Source of the DNA: an uncultured delta proteobacterium
GTDB taxonomy: Bacteria > Desulfobacterota > RBG-13-43-22
DNA: 64,000 nucleotides
Assembly: GCA_963782435.1 (NCBI GenBank)
Contig: CAWAKF010000050.1
Span: forward strand, 74,599 to 138,598
Direction: 5' to 3'
Part shown: positions 13,224-59,910 of the stretch, in pieces
Numbering within the stretch: position 1 is the first letter of the stretch
How the letters are laid out: every line of letters starts with the position of its first letter
Notes under the pieces: model-generated
What the model was told of the DNA's origin: nothing
The model's database searches: none
Seen by the model: only the letters and a program-made list of their open reading frames with translations
Made by a program: the position numbers and the translations under genes

Positions 13224-13332
13224 TCGCAAAAAGTCGTCACCCCGGCGAAAGCCGGGGTCCAGGGATTTGCTAATTTATTGAAGTTTCTGGATTCCGGGTC
13301 AAGCCCGGAATGACTAAAAGGGGTTTTGGCGA
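13224..13332. repeat. double-hairpin REP/MITE-like element, copy R1
   Basis: Sequence: tcgcaaaaag...gtcaCCCCGGcgaaaGCCGGGGtccagg...ctggaTTCCGGGtcaaGCCCGGAAtgac...ttttggcga. Same architecture as the copies at 28.5, 57.4 and 59.8 kb. Confidence 0.8.
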
Positions 13333-13595
13333 TATTGACTTGTTTCAACACGCAGGTTTGCTTAGCTACCCAAAGGAGCCTTTATCAGGAAACTTAGTGC
13401 TTCAGGTTACCCTTTACACCTTCCTCAGGCTATGTGGGTGAACTACCAAACTCCCACAGTCGGACTTAAACCGACAAGTCATACGTTTTACACAGCATAC
13501 CCTACTACTCGTTTAACCTGACAGACATGAAAAGTTTTAATTACCGTTCATATCCTTCTATTGAACAACTTTGGATTGACGCTTATTCGAAATAT

Positions 13596-15532: not shown

Positions 15533-15714
15533 TTAAGGTTTGCTGCTAATCTCTATAGAACAAAAACCCCGTCTCTCTCTTGAAAAACAGGGTTTCTTAA
15601 ATCTCCCCATATGCTGCCTCCCTTTAGAGTAAAGTGGCGTTGCTGGAAGACGGGTTATATTACAGATAAGACCTTTGAGTGGATTCCATTATACACGGAT
15701 TTGGGAAAAGTAAA
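15533..15714 (-). promoter_or_regulatory. promoter + structured leader + 25-codon mini-ORF + attenuator, copy A (upstream of the esterase gene)
   Basis: Extended -10 TGTATAAT (15688-15695). Conserved core CCGUCUUCCAGCAACGCC. Hairpin CUUUA-cuc-UAAAG overlaps the SD GGGAGG. ATG at 15610 and stop at 15533. Paralogous to 50268..50431. Confidence 0.55.
15561..15592 (-). terminator. intrinsic terminator/attenuator inside leader copy A
   Basis: The minus-strand RNA CCCUGUUUUU-caagag-AGAGACGGGG forms a 10-bp stem (with G.U pairs) followed by UUUUUG. It lies 50 nt upstream of the esterase ATG. Confidence 0.55.
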
Positions 15715-16020
15715 TAGGAGGTTTTTTATTACGAATTGATAAAGAATATAAAGATTTTAAGAGGAAAGAAAAAGAAGCCGGGTTGTTGCTTTCACCTACA
15801 ACTCTTGCTTGGGAGGTAGGCTAAAAATTGAGGATTACCGATGGAAATATGGAGAAATGATTGGACTGCCCCGTCCTTGTACTTGAGGTATCATCGCTCC
15901 TTTTTTGCTTATAGCCGCCTCCTTCCTCTAAGCTATCATAGAGATTGTCCTATTTTCTAATTTTTTAGCATCACCTCGTCCGAGATCCTTTAATTGAAAA
16001 GCAATACCTTTTAAAAAGGA

Positions 16021-16646: not shown

Positions 16647-17021
16647 GGAGAATAAAGGAAGAAAAACCAGGGGCAGCTAAGGGATTTAAGGAGGTTTAGC
16701 CCAATAAGGTTGGGACAGAAGGACCCTATTGTACGAGCAAAAGCCAAAAAGTGAAAACATAGAGTCAGACTTCTAAAAATTAGACATCCTCCCCCTTTAT
16801 GCATTCTGATCTTTCCTAATCTGAAACAATCCAGTGATTCAAGGAAACTCCGGAATCCTTATCAAGAATTTCATCATAGAATAGAAACTGGGAATCCGAT
16901 GAGTTTATTTAAGTTAAAAAAGGGCGTCATAATCAAAATAGACAATACAAAGCATGTCATTAAAGCTGTCATTCCACCTCCGAATTAGACACACGGCAAT
17001 CCCGGTGCTGACAGGGAATTA

Positions 17022-18346: not shown

Positions 18347-18679
18347 GTCGAGTAGCCCGGGGGAATTTCACCCCAGGCCCTCACAGAACCGGACGTGACA
18401 GTCTCCCGTCATCCAGCTCCTATCATCCAGTTGCCTTTTATAGCAACTTTACCTTGCTTCCTGGCTCCTCCCATCGCTGGTTGACCAAAAGGCAAGGTCA
18501 GATGATCCAACCCCTTCGCTCCATCTCCATTACAGAGACTTCACCATTACTACGAGTTGGTCCATCCCTGTGCCCCGCATCGGTACTTTCATTCTTGTGG
18601 TTTCCTCCACTTGAATTTCTCCCTTAACATCGGGACGACAGGTTCCCACGTTCCATACATGAGCCTGGATCAGGTTCGC
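18347..18679 (-). mobile_element. group II intron fragment: ORF-less, 5'-truncated copy
   Basis: Contains DVI, DV (gagctggatgacgggagactgtcacgtccggttct), a short DIV with no RT ORF, and the distal part of domains I-III. It aligns to 22352-22430 and 23740-23895 of the full-length copy. Homology stops at 18679. Confidence 0.85.
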
Positions 18680-18728: not shown

Positions 18729-18950
18729 TTATGCTGCTTCCTTCATGCAAATGATTTCTTTTTTCAGTGCATCACTCAGGCGATATAACTGTCTATGATT
18801 CTCAACCCTCCTTAAGCCTGATTCAATTTCCAAAAGGGCAGCAGCCACCCAGCGCTGCTTTTGAGATGAGTTCTTCCAGTAATCCACCTTGCCTGTATAT
18901 TGCCCTACCTGGGCCATGAGCGATTCGATGCAATTGGTCGTTTTAAAGCT
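18729..18950 (-). pseudogene. DDE transposase 3' fragment
   Basis: The frame reads *IGKSFKTTNCIESLMAQVGQYTGKVDYWKNSSQKQRWVAAALLEIE...; the TTNxIES box and tail resemble transposase C-termini. It is preceded by an in-frame stop, so only about 73 codons remain. The IS family is not identified. Confidence 0.4.
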
Positions 18951-19015
18951 TTTTCCTATTCATGCCATCTATTCAGGCTGAGGCTGCCCGCGGGCCTGAA
19001 GGATCTCGTAGACTT

Positions 19016-19591: not shown

Positions 19592-19788
19592 AGATTCACC
19601 TTTTCCTTAATTAGATTTGTCAAAAACTCAAAAATAAAAAGCCTCCACAAGGGTTGGACCCCTTTGGAGACTTCATATAAGAAATCTTTAAATCTCACAC
19701 TCCATTTTAATAGTTGGTCTATTAGGGGCGATGATCACCACTAATGAAAAGTTCGGTGCCTAAAACATTAAAGCCCCTATAATCAGTT

Positions 19789-19989
19789 TTAAAGCTTACG
19801 AACATTCTCAGCAGCAGGACCCTTAGCACCTTGGACAACATCGAAACTGACACGATCACCCTCGGCCAGCGATTTAAAACCTTCCCCCTGAATCGCGGAA
19901 TGATGGACGAATGCATCCTTGCCACCGTCCTGCTCGATGAAACCAAATCCCTTTGCATCGTTAAACCATTTAACTTTTCCTTCTGGCAT
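19789..19989 (-). CDS. cspA: cold-shock protein (CspA family)
   Basis: 66 aa: [33 protein letters not shown]... with RNP1 and RNP2 motifs. SD GGGAGG upstream. Confidence 0.95.
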
Positions 19990-20043
19990 CTTTAACCCTC
20001 CCTTGTTTTGTTTCTCTGTCGAGACATTTGTAATAGCGAGGTA

Positions 20044-20072
20044 AGTATGAATAATTCTTTCTGGAAATGCAA
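20044..20072 (-). promoter_or_regulatory. candidate sigma70 promoter of csp
   Basis: Minus strand reads TTGCAT-N17-CATACT, about 55 nt upstream of the csp ATG. Confidence 0.4.
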
Positions 20073-20123
20073 GAAGGTTATCATCAATCTCTCCGAGTGC
20101 TTGATATTTCTTTATCCGATGCC

Positions 20124-20360: not shown

Positions 20361-20633
20361 CTTCTTTTCACCGCCTATCGTTTGAGGTTATCAATAAGAA
20401 ACGTATAACCTTGACAATTAGATCTCATTGTCTGTCTAATTTTCTAAAATATCAAGCTATTCTTACAGATGATTACCGATTGAACCATTCCATTCTATTC
20501 AAGAGGGAGGTTTGAGGACTACAGGAAGCACTATCAGGCCGTCCTATGTTTTTTTGATGAAGTCCCGATTAACTCCCCAGAGCCGCCTAAAGAAAAAAGA
20601 AATTTATAAGTTGGAAGAGCCGTTTATTAAAAA

Positions 20634-22181: not shown

Positions 22182-22351
22182 GGAGAATAAAATGGCAAAC
22201 GGTAAAAGGTGAGAGGTCGAGTGATCCATGGATACTCCGAAATCCTGATCAGAGTCATTCTCATTGAATGGAAAGTGGGAATCCGAGTAGTCTATCTGAA
22301 GTTCGATGTCATTGGGTTTGGGTGGGGTTTCTGGTTGAGTTGCTCTATTGA

Positions 22352-24078
22352 GTTGAGTGGGACGAAGGAATCTCACCCCCACGCTCTCCGAGAACTGGAC
22401 GTGACAGTCTCCCGTCATCCAGCTCCTATTGTCCAGCCTTAACATGAGAAAGCTGCCAATGGGCAAAAAGTCCCGGTTGCCTATGCATTATGCCCTGCAA
22501 CCAAAGAAAAGCCCGCCGCTTGTGCCCCCTCAATCTTTTGTATTTCCGAGAGGCCCACTGAACCAGAATGTTGTTCAGGTATTGAAAGGTCCGGTAAAGG
22601 GCTGACTTGCGGTAGCGTCCGTAGTAGTTGATCCATCCCCTTAATGCCGGGTTGACCATCTGGGCCAGTTCATCCAGAGATTTATCCGTGCGTCGGTGCA
22701 GTTTCCATTGCCTCATGGCATCGCCTATCGATTTTGTGGCTTTGTTGCTGATTGCAGGATTAAATCCGATGAAAAATACACCCTGGGGATTTTTCGCTTC
22801 CCGAGGCCGAAACGTATAGCCCAGGAAATTAAACTCCTGCTCAGGATATTCCCCTCGCCGATTATCATCCATACAGTAGACAATCTTCGTCTTCTGCGAA
22901 TTTAACTCCAACCCACATTCCGCCAATCGCCCTTCAATCTCCTTCCGAAGCCCTTCTGCTTTGTCTTTGCTCCGACAGTGGCAAATCACATCATCGGCAT
23001 ACCGCTCGAAAGGAATCCGAGGATACTTCCTCTTCATCCACCTATCGAACGTATAATGTAAAAAGAGATTCGCCAGCAAGGGGCTGATCACTCCTCCTTG
23101 CGGTGTCCCCTTGTCCCGATGAATCAGGCTGCCATCCCCTAATTGCACCGGAACCTTCAGCCATCTTTCGATGTTGAGAAGAACCCATTTGCAATCGGTA
23201 TGTTTCCTTACCGCCCGCATCAAAAGACCGTGGTCGATATTGTCAAAGAAACCCTTGATGTCCAGATCAAGAACCCAGTCGTATCGCCAGCACCGCTGTC
23301 GTCCAACCCCTATGGCCTCAATCGCAGACTTCTTTGGCCGATACCCATAAGAGTCCGGATGGAAATGCTCTTCCAAAATCGGCTCCAGGTATCGTTTGAC
23401 TACCGTCTGGGCAATGCGATCTGCCACCGTTGGTATACCCAGCGGCCGCGTCCCCCCATTATCCTTTGGTATATCGACCCGACGTACCGGTGGTGGGAAA
23501 TAGCTCCCTGAGGACATCCGATTCCAGATCTTGAAAAGGTTGTCTTTCAAACCCTCTTCAAACTCTGCAATGGATTGCCCATCTACTCCAGCCGCTCCTT
23601 GGTTCGCCTTAACCCGTTTATAGGCCTCCCAGACTTCCCATTTTGAAATACAAAATGGCTTTGTTTTATCCACCAGGTTCCTCCCATTTCTGGTTGACCT
23701 GCAAATAAAGCCAGACAACACAGCCCCTTCGGTCCAGTTCCATTACAGAACCTTCCTCCCTACTACAGGCTGTTCCGCCCCCGTGCCCCGCATCGGTACT
23801 CTCATTCTTGTGGTTTCCTCCACTTGAATTTCTCCCTTAACATCGGGACAACAGGTTCCCACATTCCACACCTGAGCCTGGATCAGGTTCGCGCTACCTT
23901 TATGCCGGATGCCGCCCAGGCAGTAAACAGGTTTCTCCTGGACTGATCCCGGAGTTCCGTAAGCCCCCGGTTCTGACATCATCTATTCATTTCGACACCT
24001 CAGAAGTAGTTCGCTTCCGCTCGCCTCCCTGATCTTTACCTGACAGGGTCGTTGCCCTGCCTTTTCCTTAACGCTCAC
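22352..24078 (-). mobile_element. full-length group II intron (compact, class C-like)
   Basis: 5' end GUGAGCG at 24078. The RT ORF sits in DIV. A canonical DV lies at 22391-22425 (AGC triad, 2-nt bulge, GAGA loop). DVI has a bulged A and a 3' ...CUCAAC ending at 22352. Confidence 0.85.
22426..23673 (-). CDS. group II intron reverse transcriptase/maturase (no endonuclease domain)
   Basis: RT blocks include GAAGVDGQS, PKDNGGTRPLGIPTVADR and YADDVICHC. An X/thumb domain follows, and the protein then ends. I prefer the GTG at 23673 (GGGAGG 6 nt upstream); the track start is 23721. Confidence 0.9.
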   Translation of the reverse strand: MDKTKPFCISKWEVWEAYKRVKANQGAAGVDGQSIAEFEEGLKDNLFKIWNRMSSGSYFPPPVRRVDIPKDNGGTRPLGIPTVADRIAQTVVKRYLEPILEEHFHPDSYGYRPKKSAIEAIGVGRQRCWRYDWVLDLDIKGFFDNIDHGLLMRAVRKHTDCKWVLLNIERWLKVPVQLGDGSLIHRDKGTPQGGVISPLLANLFLHYTFDRWMKRKYPRIPFERYADDVICHCRSKDKAEGLRKEIEGRLAECGLELNSQKTKIVYCMDDNRRGEYPEQEFNFLGYTFRPREAKNPQGVFFIGFNPAISNKATKSIGDAMRQWKLHRRTDKSLDELAQMVNPALRGWINYYGRYRKSALYRTFQYLNNILVQWASRKYKRLRGHKRRAFLWLQGIMHRQPGLFAHWQLSHVKAGQ

Positions 24079-24665
24079 CACCATGGCTCTTGACCATAGC
24101 AGCTCATACCGACTTTCTTTCCCTTTACCCCCCTTCTTTACTCCTTCTACTTCTTCCATGGTAACACCCCTTTCTCCCTCTCAGGAGTGTCACCCTTTTT
24201 ACCCTTCTTCTTTATCTCATGATCTGGTAGTTAGCTCACCTTTCAAAATATACCAGCTATGGGTAAATCATACTGTTGCCGTTTTTAAATCCAAAGAATA
24301 TCAAGTATTTTCATTTATTACCATTTGAAGTCTCCCATTTTATCCAAAAGGGAAATTTGAGGATTTCAGGAAGGTTTACGTACTATAATAATCTGCATCT
24401 CTAAAAAAACCGTCTCCCCCAAGTTTTTCTCCAACACATTCTGCTTTTGGTCAAGGACATGACCGATATTGAGGGATATTGGATTGAAGGTTTGAAACGT
24501 AATGGTCTGGTAGAGACGGATGTATAGATAATTAGTTGCAGGAAGGCAGGATGGCGGGCAGTTGACTCTCAAAAGGTCATTTCCGTATTTCCAGATGGGA
24601 GTTTCACAACTCAGGCCCCCAAATTACCGTGAAGGCAACGGGGACCTGAGTGATAGTAATTCTGT

Positions 24666-28524: not shown

Positions 28525-28625
28525 CCTTTTTAGGTCGTCTCCCCGGCATAAGCCGGGGTCCAGGGTTTTCGTTAGTCCGGAAAAACTCCTGGATTCCGGC
28601 TTTCGCCGGAATGACGGTCCGGAGG
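28525..28625. repeat. double-hairpin REP/MITE-like element, copy R2
   Basis: Sequence: gtcgtcTCCCCGGcataaGCCGGGGtccagg...ctggaTTCCGGctttcGCCGGAAtgac. It lies in the 265-nt gap between two minus-strand genes. Confidence 0.8.
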
Positions 28626-43962: not shown

Positions 43963-44164
43963 TATAAGCATTTTTAAATTAAATCAAGAAATTATTAAAT
44001 CTGGTAGGGTGATACCCACTTTACCCGGTTTCCAAGATCGAGAATTTATTGTCAAATATTTTTGAAACGGATCAAACCTGCTTTTGACTCTTAAAAGAGG
44101 ACATTTCATCTCCTTAGACTTTACCCAAGGACAAAATAACTTCCCGATAAAGAAATGTCCCCAA

Positions 44165-44232
44165 TCTTGGAGGGAAATCAAGAAAAGAGTTCTTGCTTGA
44201 CGCTCTATCGCTTTTTCTCTATATTATATTCT
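44165..44232 (+). promoter_or_regulatory. hairpin + sigma70 promoter cassette, copy A
   Basis: Hairpin TCTTG/CAAGA followed by aaaagagttcttgcTTGACG-N17-TATATT. About 45 of 49 nt are identical to 55161-55210. Confidence 0.6.
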
Positions 44233-50267: not shown

Positions 50268-50431
50268 TTAAACAAAAAACCCCACCTCTCGGTTAAGAAA
50301 CGTGATTTCCTCCTCCTCCATTGGCTTGCCCTCCCTTTAGGGTAAAGGGGCGATGCTGGAAGACGGATTACCTTACCGATTTGGTCTTTGAATATAGTGG
50401 ATTATACACGATTTGGGGAAAAGAAAATAGG
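50268..50431 (-). promoter_or_regulatory. promoter + structured leader + 17-codon mini-ORF + attenuator, copy B
   Basis: TGTATAAT (50401-50408). Core CCGUCUUCCAGCAUCGCC. Hairpin CCCUUUA-ccc-UAAAGGG overlaps the SD. ATG at 50321 encodes MEEEEITFLNREVGFFV. A hairpin plus U6 lies at 50273-50305. Confidence 0.55.
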
Positions 50432-50861
50432 GGGTTTTTCTCTGGAGTGGGATCATTAAATTGGGGGGGTCCGTCAAAGAATACCGTTTGTACTCTTCCG
50501 GTTTTTTAAAAATTGAATTTAAAGGATAGCAGGAAGCAATGCTTCCGGTAGCCACCTATCTCCTTAAAATAAAACATCATTTTTTTCAATTAACCCTCCT
50601 AAAATTATAACATTTCAAATGGTTATAAATAGCTATCAAGAATTTCCCCCATTAATCTTGTCAATATTATTTGTTTTTTCGGTCAGTGTCACCTAAGAGG
50701 GAACTGATTCCGGCTATTGCAAAAAATTGTTTGATAAAAATGGGGAGATGGTAAAGAAACAACTGGGGGAAAAAAGGGGGCTATTAGTGTTTATGAGGAG
50801 TTTACTCAGACCGCAAACATCGTATCAAAAAAAATATTGAAATAATAAAGTTACCATAGGT

Positions 50862-53506: not shown

Positions 53507-53739
53507 GGAGAAAATCGGTCAAGAAAAAGAGGAAACAGGATGTTCTCAAAAAAACACAAGATAATTTGCAAAAACTTTTCCTTTCAGTCCTGATGTGTAC
53601 TTAACAGGTCGAGTAATCTGGGGAATACCCGGATCAGGAAAGGCTTCCTCATAGAAAGGAAACTTGAAGTCCGAGTAGTCTATCGTAATTTCGAGGACTT
53701 TGGGTTTAGGTGGGGGGTCAGGGAGGTTTACTTAATCGA

Positions 53740-53995
53740 GTCGAGTAGCCCGGGGGAATTTCACCCCCAGGCCCTCACAGATCCGGACGTGACAGTCTCC
53801 CGTCATCCGGCTCCTATCATCCAGTTGCCTTTTATAGCAACTTTACCTTGCTTCCTGGTTCCTCCCATCGCTGGTTGACCATAAGGCAAGGACGGATGAT
53901 CCGACCCCTTCACTCCATTCCCGTTACAGGAACTTCCACACTACTACGAGTTGGTCCGCCCCTGTGCCCCGCATCGGTACTCTCATCTGTGAGTT
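53740..53995 (-). mobile_element. group II intron fragment: second ORF-less, more deeply 5'-truncated copy
   Basis: It has DVI, DV and the same ORF-less DIV as the 18.3 kb copy. Homology to the full-length intron fades around 53987-53998. Confidence 0.85.
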
Positions 53996-54019: not shown

Positions 54020-54499
54020 TCACCTGTTATCGCCTCTCAGCGCATTTCTTGAGGCCCTATCCACAATTGTAAAAATTCTATCAATATCATCTTTTTGAGT
54101 TGATAGCCGATGTCCAGACACCTTAACAAATTCAAAGTCTTTTTTATCGGTCAAAGTATAAAATTGCTGATACAGCTTATAATTGTTGAGGAGCTTTTTT
54201 TTCTTTGAACGATAATTATTTAGCTCAAACCCATCACGTCGTCCCTGTAAACCCATTATGTTTTGAGAATCTGTATAAACAATCACCCTACCCTCCCAAG
54301 CTTGAATATCGCTTAGCGCCCATAATAAAGTCTCCAATTCCAATTTCGTTGAAGACGTATGCTCAAATCGCCTCACTTTCACTCTTGTCCTCAATGTTTC
54401 CAACGGAAGTCCACGTTCAGACACAGCGAGGTAAACTCCATATCCAATATTTGTCTGAATATTCACACTTCCATCTGTGAATAGCATTAGTTCAACCAT
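54020..54499 (-). CDS. rnhA: ribonuclease H (type 1)
   Basis: 159 aa with RNase HI catalytic contexts FTDGS, ELETLLWAL, YTDSQ and VSGH...D. The gene is visibly AT-rich compared with its neighbours. Confidence 0.75.
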   Translation of the reverse strand: MVELMLFTDGSVNIQTNIGYGVYLAVSERGLPLETLRTRVKVRRFEHTSSTKLELETLLWALSDIQAWEGRVIVYTDSQNIMGLQGRRDGFELNNYRSKKKKLLNNYKLYQQFYTLTDKKDFEFVKVSGHRLSTQKDDIDRIFTIVDRASRNALRGDNR

Positions 54500-54882: not shown

Positions 54883-55141
54883 GAAGGAAAAGAGGTCTGA
54901 ATAAAAAGTTTGGTCTGATTATCTTTTTTAATTACAATTTGAACCCTTTTATTTTTCCATTAAATAGGTTGGTAAATTTCAGGAAACAATTCTCCAAACT
55001 AACCCCGCTTCCCCAAGTAAATACTCTCAGGTTGCTCAAATAATCCCATCAAAATCTCCAGATTACCGGCAGCCTTAATCAGGACTTGAATCTTTCAAAT
55101 CGAAGTCCAGTGTTTACAAAATCCTGGAAAGTAGATCCCCC

Positions 55142-55211
55142 AGTCTCTGAAAGAGACTATAAAAAGAGTTCTTGCTTGACGGTCTATCGTTGTTTCTCTA
55201 TATTATATTTC
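55142..55211 (+). promoter_or_regulatory. hairpin + sigma70 promoter cassette, copy B
   Basis: Hairpin AGTCTCT-gaa-AGAGACT followed by aaaagagttcttgcTTGACG-N17-TATATT. It lies 42 nt upstream of the aldolase ATG. Confidence 0.6.
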
Positions 55212-59802: not shown

Positions 59803-59910
59803 GTCGCTAAAAAGCTGTCTCTGTCATTCCGACGAAAGTCGGAATCCAGAAGTCTTAATAGGTTATAAAATCCCTGGACCCCGGTTTTCACCGGGGTGAC
59901 AACTTTTTTT
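59803..59910. repeat. double-hairpin REP/MITE-like element, copy R4 (inverted relative to R1/R2)
   Basis: gtcATTCCGACgaaaGTCGGAATccag...ccctggaCCCCGGttttcaCCGGGGtgac. Confidence 0.8.

Follow-up and report, generated by a model that had tools for sequence, protein, structure and literature searches.

What is the intergenic sequence at positions 18347 to 18679 of a 64,000-nt stretch of DNA from an uncultured delta proteobacterium (hereafter the window), and how did it come to share a deletion with a second sequence some 35 kb away? A preliminary description of the window had taken both for group II intron derivatives that lost their reverse transcriptase (RT) gene in a single event and were then dispersed, presumably with the help of an RT acting in trans. 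Here we call the two copies c18 and c53, after their positions. [quoted passage not shown] The parts of c18 are as follows.

18347 to 18679, minus strand: c18, 5'-truncated ORF-less group II intron copy (type A lineage), 333 nt
18499 to 18679, minus strand: 3' part of domain I (DI), DII and DIII, the DIII region containing GUAGUA
18420 to 18498, minus strand: remnant of DIV, 79 nt
18386 to 18419, minus strand: DV, 34 nt, GAGCTGGATGACGGGAGACTGTCACGTCCGGTTC, with a GAGA loop
18347 to 18385, minus strand: DVI, with a bulged A 7 nt from the 3' end (the last letter of GGGCTA, followed by CTCGAC)

The assignment of c18 was assessed with Rfam and by alignment to the RT-bearing relative at 22352-24104, and the two confirm the earlier account of it as an ORF-less copy holding DVI, DV and the 3' part of DI to DIII. 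The DV/DVI family (RF00029) matches the minus strand at 18347-18421 with 58.6 bits, at 53740-53815 with 57.5 bits and at 22352-22427 with 51.6 bits. Two blocks align with the RT-bearing copy, each at 83% identity: 18679 to 18460 matches 23892 to 23673 over 220 nt without gaps and ends at the RT start codon, while 18430 to 18342 matches 22436 to 22347 and begins 10 nt before the RT stop codon. Measured on a complete relative of 624 nt (L027 6179..5556; L numbers denote loci outside the window), c18 comprises positions 294-624, and its predicted RNA folding is far better than that of shuffled sequences (z = -5.4).

Several hallmarks of a group II intron are present in c18, namely a DV hairpin with the catalytic AGC and a GNRA-type loop, the branch-point A of DVI and an AY ending. 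The intron ends in GGGCTACTCGAC at 18347, where a 3' exon beginning TCAAT takes over, and the stem of DVI is short of one G that all relatives have. The 5' splice site, EBS2 and EBS1 are absent, the EBS lying at around 188-226 in the complete element. Neither c18 nor c53 has a GUGYG 5' splice site or a complete DI with EBS1 and EBS2; both are fragments of a group II intron member and not functional introns.

The only RT gene of the window lies 3.7 kb from c18, in the copy that had been described as full.

22352 to 24104, minus strand: RT-bearing relative, delimited by Rfam and by alignment to relatives
22426 to 23673, minus strand: intact RT/maturase ORF, 415 aa, matching Pfam RVT_1 and GIIM and NCBIfam TIGR04416 (439 bits)

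This copy is in fact incomplete, and the sole RT gene thus sits in an element without its own 5' end. Relatives extend 78 nt further 5' (GTGCG...CTTAA) than its start at 24104, so that the first 78 nt, including the 5' splice site GUGCG, are lacking; the Rfam domain I-IV family RF01999, which matches 24038-24115 over model positions 42-118 only, agrees with such a truncation. EBS1 (TTACGG) is retained, and DVI contains a C-C mismatch. The RT starts with GTG, has the YADD motif and is without an endonuclease domain. Its length is that of the RTs of five relatives, and pairwise dN/dS values are 0.15-0.18. A scan for promoters and terminators between 18.0 and 24.8 kb gave counts at chance level, with no promoter standing out upstream of the RT gene. 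The ribozyme of this copy is 83% identical to that of c18 and 78% identical to that of c53. It is not the parent of either and, since its ribozyme is only some 83% identical to c18, it may not be the cognate driver of the c18 lineage.

The solved structures nearest to the window RT are those of GsI-IIC (E = 4e-47) and the E. rectale IIC RT. The same family has a 13-nt IBS2-IBS1 target and not a IIC-type hairpin, and in Rfam its 5' part is group-II-D1D4-2. Assignment of the intron family to a class from the solved RT structures was considered and is not decisive, given the 13-nt target.

The manner in which the ORF was removed can be followed at the DIV junction. Between the two aligned blocks of c18 lie 29 nt (AAGCAAGGTAAAGTTGCTATAAAAGGCAA) that BLAST leaves unaligned to the RT-bearing copy. 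Through intermediates such as L046 (GCTTGGTGATAAGGCAAGGTTGC), this stretch aligns to the ORF start GTGGATAAAGCAAAGCC, and it is evidently to be read as the diverged first 6-7 codons of the RT (GTG GAT AAA GCA AAG CC...) together with a short loop. The DIV of c18 consists, in order, of the DIVa stem-loop, a small hairpin and CTGGATGATAG, the last of these being the former final ORF codons and stop. The deletion took out DIVb, and with it the RT gene between codon 8 or so and a point some five codons short of the stop; the hairpin GTTGCT-ATAAAA-GGCAAC occupies the place of the former 1.2-kb ORF. The preliminary description quoted the ribosome-binding-site strings exactly but had the sequence jump directly from there to DV; instead, some 20 nt of the first ORF codons, the hairpin loop and some 16 nt of the ORF 3' end were kept.

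What had been called the ribosome-binding-site region is a covarying DIVa stem-loop around the Shine-Dalgarno sequence GGGAGGA and a degenerate start codon. In RT-bearing copies, the 3' strand of its outer helix is formed by ORF codons 2-4 (CTTTAT/ATAAAG); in c18 the helix reads CCTTGC/GCAAGG, a non-coding descendant of those codons. Over 42 distinct copies, ORF-less and ORF-containing together, 91.6% of DIVa cells are paired, with two-sided changes in eight of the 11 pairs, and sliding the partner by 1-3 columns as a control leaves at most 53% paired. For the DIV hairpin the corresponding figures are 88.9% and double changes in five of the six pairs. This covariation speaks for structural selection on both DIVa and the hairpin. 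In the Ll.LtrB and TeI introns, which are known in detail, the IEP binds primarily to DIVa (PMC2882425) and, by analogy with that work, the DIVa stem-loop of the present family is expected to be its RT-binding site. The keeping of DIVa after coding was lost is as a trans-dependent element should show.

The second ORF-less copy and its surroundings are these.

53740 to 53986, minus strand: c53, second 5'-truncated ORF-less copy, positions 379-624 of the complete element, from Rfam and alignment
53629 to 53739, minus strand: 3' flank of c53; from the splice site itself onward, it shares about 70-76% identity with the sequence 3' of the RT-bearing copy (22217-22351)

An RNase H gene (54020-54499) comes to its stop codon 33 nt before c53 starts. 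This second copy does have the DIV junction of c18, with two differences between GGTCAACC and DV, and it does break off at another point, at 53985-53986 as opposed to 18679 (18677 by another reference) in c18. The two copies had been said to differ by only a few substitutions, but the actual tally is about 20 substitutions and one indel, corresponding to 89% identity without gaps or 92% (92.2%) in a MAFFT alignment of 245 nt.

The flank that c53 shares with the RT-bearing copy spans about 110 nt, and a partial third copy of it, free of any intron, is found at 16830-16915 on the minus strand. A common ancestral insertion was considered as the source of this sharing and rejected, c53 being 94-90% identical to ORF-less copies of foreign genomes and 78% identical to the RT-bearing copy. 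Most likely, two related intron sublineages entered the same site of a repeated sequence. Each of the three copies of the shared flank is followed, 140-450 nt further on, by a gene in the same orientation, and the flank yields similar peptides (..PPKP..IDYSD..FPF.E..) with no complete ORF.

Relatives beyond this genome were gathered with a 24-nt DV core in contigs representing one genome per species, and the resulting loci, at least 117 in number, were compared locally; the core itself is common to introns of many phyla. Among the matches listed, the family occurs in MAGs labelled delta proteobacterium, Syntrophales, Thermodesulfobacteriota and others. L084, in the MAG of another species, is the same as c18 from the DIVa stem to the DIV hairpin, a region in which c53 differs at one position. 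Ranked by identity to c18 among the matches listed, L084 (95.0%), L026 (93.8%) and L112 (92.8%) all stand before c53 (92.2%), and c53 gives the same pattern, with the ORF-less copies of other genomes listed at 94-90%. Since neither window copy is nearer to the other than to copies found elsewhere, the lineage is either older than this genome or able to pass from one genome to another, and it did not spread in a local event. Variants of the junction of the same type are seen, among the matches listed, in L026, L112, L107, L027, L050, L077, L046, L100 and L055, and a sister type with a CCGC/GCGG hairpin, again among those listed, in L016, L017, L021 and L116. Outside the introns, there is no synteny between the window and the loci of the relatives.

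The suggestion that further ORF-less copies, and 5'-complete ones especially, should be sought proved fruitful, with examples found in other species and in metagenomes. MAGs of other species contain at least 12 that are 5'-complete. The exact c18 junction gave no match in the metagenomes searched, while a looser pattern of junction plus DV retrieved 111 JGI metagenome contigs; by local BLAST, the copies are 5'-complete in 43 of these, truncated or interrupted in 18 and cut by contig ends in 25. Complete ORF-less members measure about 624 nt and begin with GTGCGCCACGA.

Some of these elements have themselves been invaded. A group II intron with 5' end GTGCGCC or TTGCGCC lies inside the DVI of L021 (2499), L046 (1253), L050 (5780) and L077 (887), the insertions of these twintrons being at one common DVI position in two different MAGs. 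The DVI of L084 carries a different insertion. In L039 a second partial copy directly follows the first, and two other DVIs have left fragments in front of L034.

This wider sample bears on whether c18 and c53 inherited one deletion or suffered two, their junctions being alike because DIVb is prone to deletion at its base. Loss of the ORF near this place did recur: among the matches listed, L034, L039/L040, L059, L057 and L090 are independent losses at nearly the same stem, with loops all different. The type of deletion derivative that belongs to the window's RT-bearing copy is exemplified by L034: here the ORF was cleanly removed between TGT repeats, and the matching ORF-type intron, L056, is present in the same MAG. 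Because of this recurrence, the shared position of a deletion is weak evidence. Two separate losses are nevertheless very improbable for c18 and c53, which share a lost start codon, a 1-nt deletion, the GCAAGG strand and the GTTGCT-ATAAAA-GGCAAC hairpin, have in common type-A-specific bases flanking DV and DVI that are unlike those of the ORF type, and differ at just two positions from GGTCAACC to DV. Their shared, diverged remnant points instead to common descent. A segmental duplication of one locus is another conceivable source of such likeness, and both copies are indeed intergenic, on the minus strand and upstream of a gene. The preliminary description had itself named identical flanks at 18.3 and 53.7 kb as the sign of this, but there is no flank homology on either side beyond the intron: similarity ceases about 5 nt past the 3' splice site. 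The 5' breaks differ (18679 and 53986), and each copy is equally near to copies in other genomes. With the flanks unrelated, we regard duplication as excluded for practical purposes. A single loss of the ORF in the lineage of c18 and c53, followed by non-autonomous dispersal as first proposed, is supported, and better so than in the preliminary description, by the occurrence of the same junction and diverged remnant in c18, in c53 and in MAGs of other species, as well as by the 111 metagenome contigs that match the looser pattern.

The complete copies also indicate how the lineage inserted. They occupy many different sites; by the motif at the end of the 5' exon, at least two families can be told apart (TTTCAAnCnGTAA and CTTGTAGGTGWWM), while 3' exons tend to begin TC(A/G)(A/T)T. 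Target-type sequences for the family are TTTCAAnCNGTAA followed by TC and TTTCAAACGGTAA followed by TCAAT. The loop of the EBS1 hairpin at about 220-226 (CTGGGGGC-TTACNG-AACTCCAG) is complementary to the last exon bases of its own element, examples of EBS1/IBS1 pairs being TTACGG/CCGTAA, TTACCG/CGGTAA, TTTCAC/GTGAAA, GTACAC/GTGTAC, CAATAT/ATATTG and AGCTTA/TAAGCT. Watson-Crick pairing of EBS1 averages 5.86 of 7 positions with the element's own exon and 4.55 with the exons of other elements, and a score of at least 6 of 7 is reached with the own exon in 27 of 35 elements, as opposed to 12% of non-self combinations. This correspondence, which covers the complete relatives, c18 and c53 being devoid of EBS loops and of a 5' exon junction, indicates that the lineage inserted by reverse splicing. 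Target motifs common to ORF-less (L055, L137) and ORF-containing members (L085, L096, L109) fit the use of the same machinery by both.

We propose the following origin. The ancestor would belong to a family of RT-encoding introns without an endonuclease, from which deletion of DIVb removed the RT gene and left DIVa in place. Complete members of about 624 nt would splice, and would reverse-splice into sites chosen by pairing of EBS1/EBS2 with IBS1/IBS2, the RT/maturase being supplied in trans by related introns that contain the ORF. The lineage thus probably borrows its RT from such relatives.

Sequences resembling unoccupied homing sites are found in the window within an 80-nt repeat of 74% identity on the minus strand (20448-20528 and 24297-24373): GTTCAATCGGTAA followed by TCATC at 20468-20485, and CTTCAAATGGTAA followed by TAAAT at 24313-24330. 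A target-like pattern matches the window six times against 1.4 expected, with five of the six on the minus strand.

Each of the three intron copies of the window has an exact 3' end and lacks the 5' splice site. As this site is gone, and in the two ORF-less copies EBS1 and EBS2 as well, none of the three can splice or move now, and they are immobile relics. Immediately upstream of c18 lies one further feature.

18732 to 18959, minus strand: C-terminal remnant of an IS256-family transposase, 76 aa, with no N-terminal part, from NCBIfam and tblastn

The remnant covers positions 295-337 of the 338 in profile NF033543 (E = 1e-5) and matches annotated IS256-family genes in tblastn (E = 2e-7); a Pfam search with the 76 aa gave no match. 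The break of c18 at 18679 lies about 50 nt downstream of it on the same strand. Although the timing and mechanism of the truncations are things we infer, the 5' loss of c18 is most simply tied to IS256 insertion or to deletion beside the break. Long ORFs are scarce in the surrounding region at 18.1-20.6 kb, which gives the impression of decayed mobile DNA adjoining a cspA-like gene (19789-19989); an Rfam match to the cspA thermoregulator there, at 19750-20120, falls below threshold.

The truncations could alternatively have arisen at insertion itself, through abortive reverse transcription in the manner of LINEs, the unfinished cDNA being joined to upstream DNA. The combination of precise 3' ends, 3' exons fitting TC(A/G)(A/T)T and three different 5' breaks in the three window copies would be accounted for in this way, as would the fact that the window holds no 3'-truncated fragment of the family. 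5'-truncated ORF-less copies occur elsewhere too (L016, L026, L112 and L100 among the matches listed), but the external relatives were all selected through DV, so that 3'-truncated copies cannot appear among them and an excess of 5' truncations there is uninformative. With the IS256 remnant some 50 nt from its break pointing to later rearrangement, c18 has no need of abortive reverse transcription. Nor is the 5'-exon motif found at any junction, and nothing upstream aligns to the missing part of the intron: in searches upstream of the three breaks for either of these, local alignment scores equalled those of shuffled sequence. We consider abortive insertion a possible, if rather unlikely, cause of the truncations. 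A stretch TTTCAAC..TAAG upstream of c18 was considered as a 5'-exon remnant and, scoring like shuffled sequence, is treated as chance. The good preservation of DII-DVI and the strong predicted fold (z = -5.4) might suggest, on the other hand, that the fragments still function, as part of a split trans-splicing intron or by providing DV and DVI in trans. This we find hard to credit: no 5' half of the family exists anywhere in the window, the three copies are broken at different places in domain I or II, their 3' exons are non-coding intergenic DNA, one base of the DVI stem is missing in c18, and the divergence of about 8% between c18 and c53 is as expected of decaying copies. Our preferred reading of c18 thus remains that of a dead fragment of a lineage that was mobile elsewhere.

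The window contains other repeats and intron debris. An isolated fragment of a different group II family (RF02003, group-II-D1D4-4, 71 bits) lies at 13338-13477 on the minus strand with no DV nearby, and L190 holds a stretch 88% identical to it. A short repeat rich in palindromes (..ATTCCGGGCTTGACCCGGAAT..CCCCGGCTTTCGCCGGGG..) is present at 13228-13296 and, inverted and 84% identical, at 59840-59908, as well as at 28534-28615, and looks like an element of REP or MITE type. Direct repeats in two copies are seen at 44159-44230 and 55138-55209 (82%), which contain a promoter-like TTGACG...TATATT, and at 15617-15726 and 50330-50439 (80%).

For the annotation of the window, these results mean that three intergenic stretches are dead group II intron remnants, one of them with an intact RT gene. 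More broadly, we consider the odds to be slightly better than even that the sequences represent a large, SINE-like family about 624 nt long and present in several orders of anaerobes, with a covarying RT-binding DIVa, two or more families of homing site, twintrons and several independent losses of the ORF. If that were true, non-autonomous group II introns would be far commoner and longer-lived in bacteria than the word 'rare' implies. As natural data, the dozens of complete ORF-less copies, with compensatory changes in DIVa and the EBS1 loop, reveal at the level of sequence what a non-coding intron dependent on an RT must keep, and repeated loss of the ORF at one stem indicates that autonomous introns easily yield parasites of their own RT.

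[quoted passage not shown] Those of bacteria and archaea are the subject of Simon et al. 2008 and Dai and Zimmerly 2003, both cited in PMC8919778, and genome-wide surveys already list them as a category (PMC8919778). According to a 2015 review (PMC4424553), they are rare in bacteria and nearly always found beside related IEP-encoding introns, whose IEPs may act on them in trans. The situation in the window is the same as regards such company, but where the review has 'rare', the c18 lineage is numerous in the data sampled. The same review notes that most bacterial intron copies are truncated and near other mobile DNA, and in this respect c18 is a typical truncated copy. The kind of element is therefore already known; in its breadth and abundance, and in the recurrent loss of its ORF, the lineage goes somewhat further than the accounts cited here.

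[quoted passage not shown] In TeI3/TeI4, a single DIVb deletion has the same end points in all 17 copies and is bordered on either side by what is left of the ORF; also described are changes in DIVa, families that differ in their EBS, twintrons, three copies that are mere fragments, and driver IEPs that act in trans (PMC2882425). Common to TeI3 and the c18 family are deletion of the ORF from DIVb with the same break-points among copies, remnants of the N- and C-terminal ends of the ORF, a retained DIVa and related RT-encoding introns in the same genome, here the 5'-truncated copy at 22352-24104 with about 83% identity. EBS/IBS pairing, here in the complete relatives, diverged families of target site, twintrons and 3' fragments are likewise found in both. 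The two also differ. TeI3/TeI4 are chloroplast-like (IIB1) introns with an IEP that has an En domain, and they belong to one cyanobacterial genome, whereas the c18 family has an En-less RT of 415 aa, extends over many MAGs and metagenome contigs and lost its ORF recurrently. Mobilization in trans was demonstrated by experiment for TeI3 and is proposed for the c18 family. The family would offer, besides T. elongatus, a second and phylogenetically distant system for trans-mobilization, retargeting and twintron formation.
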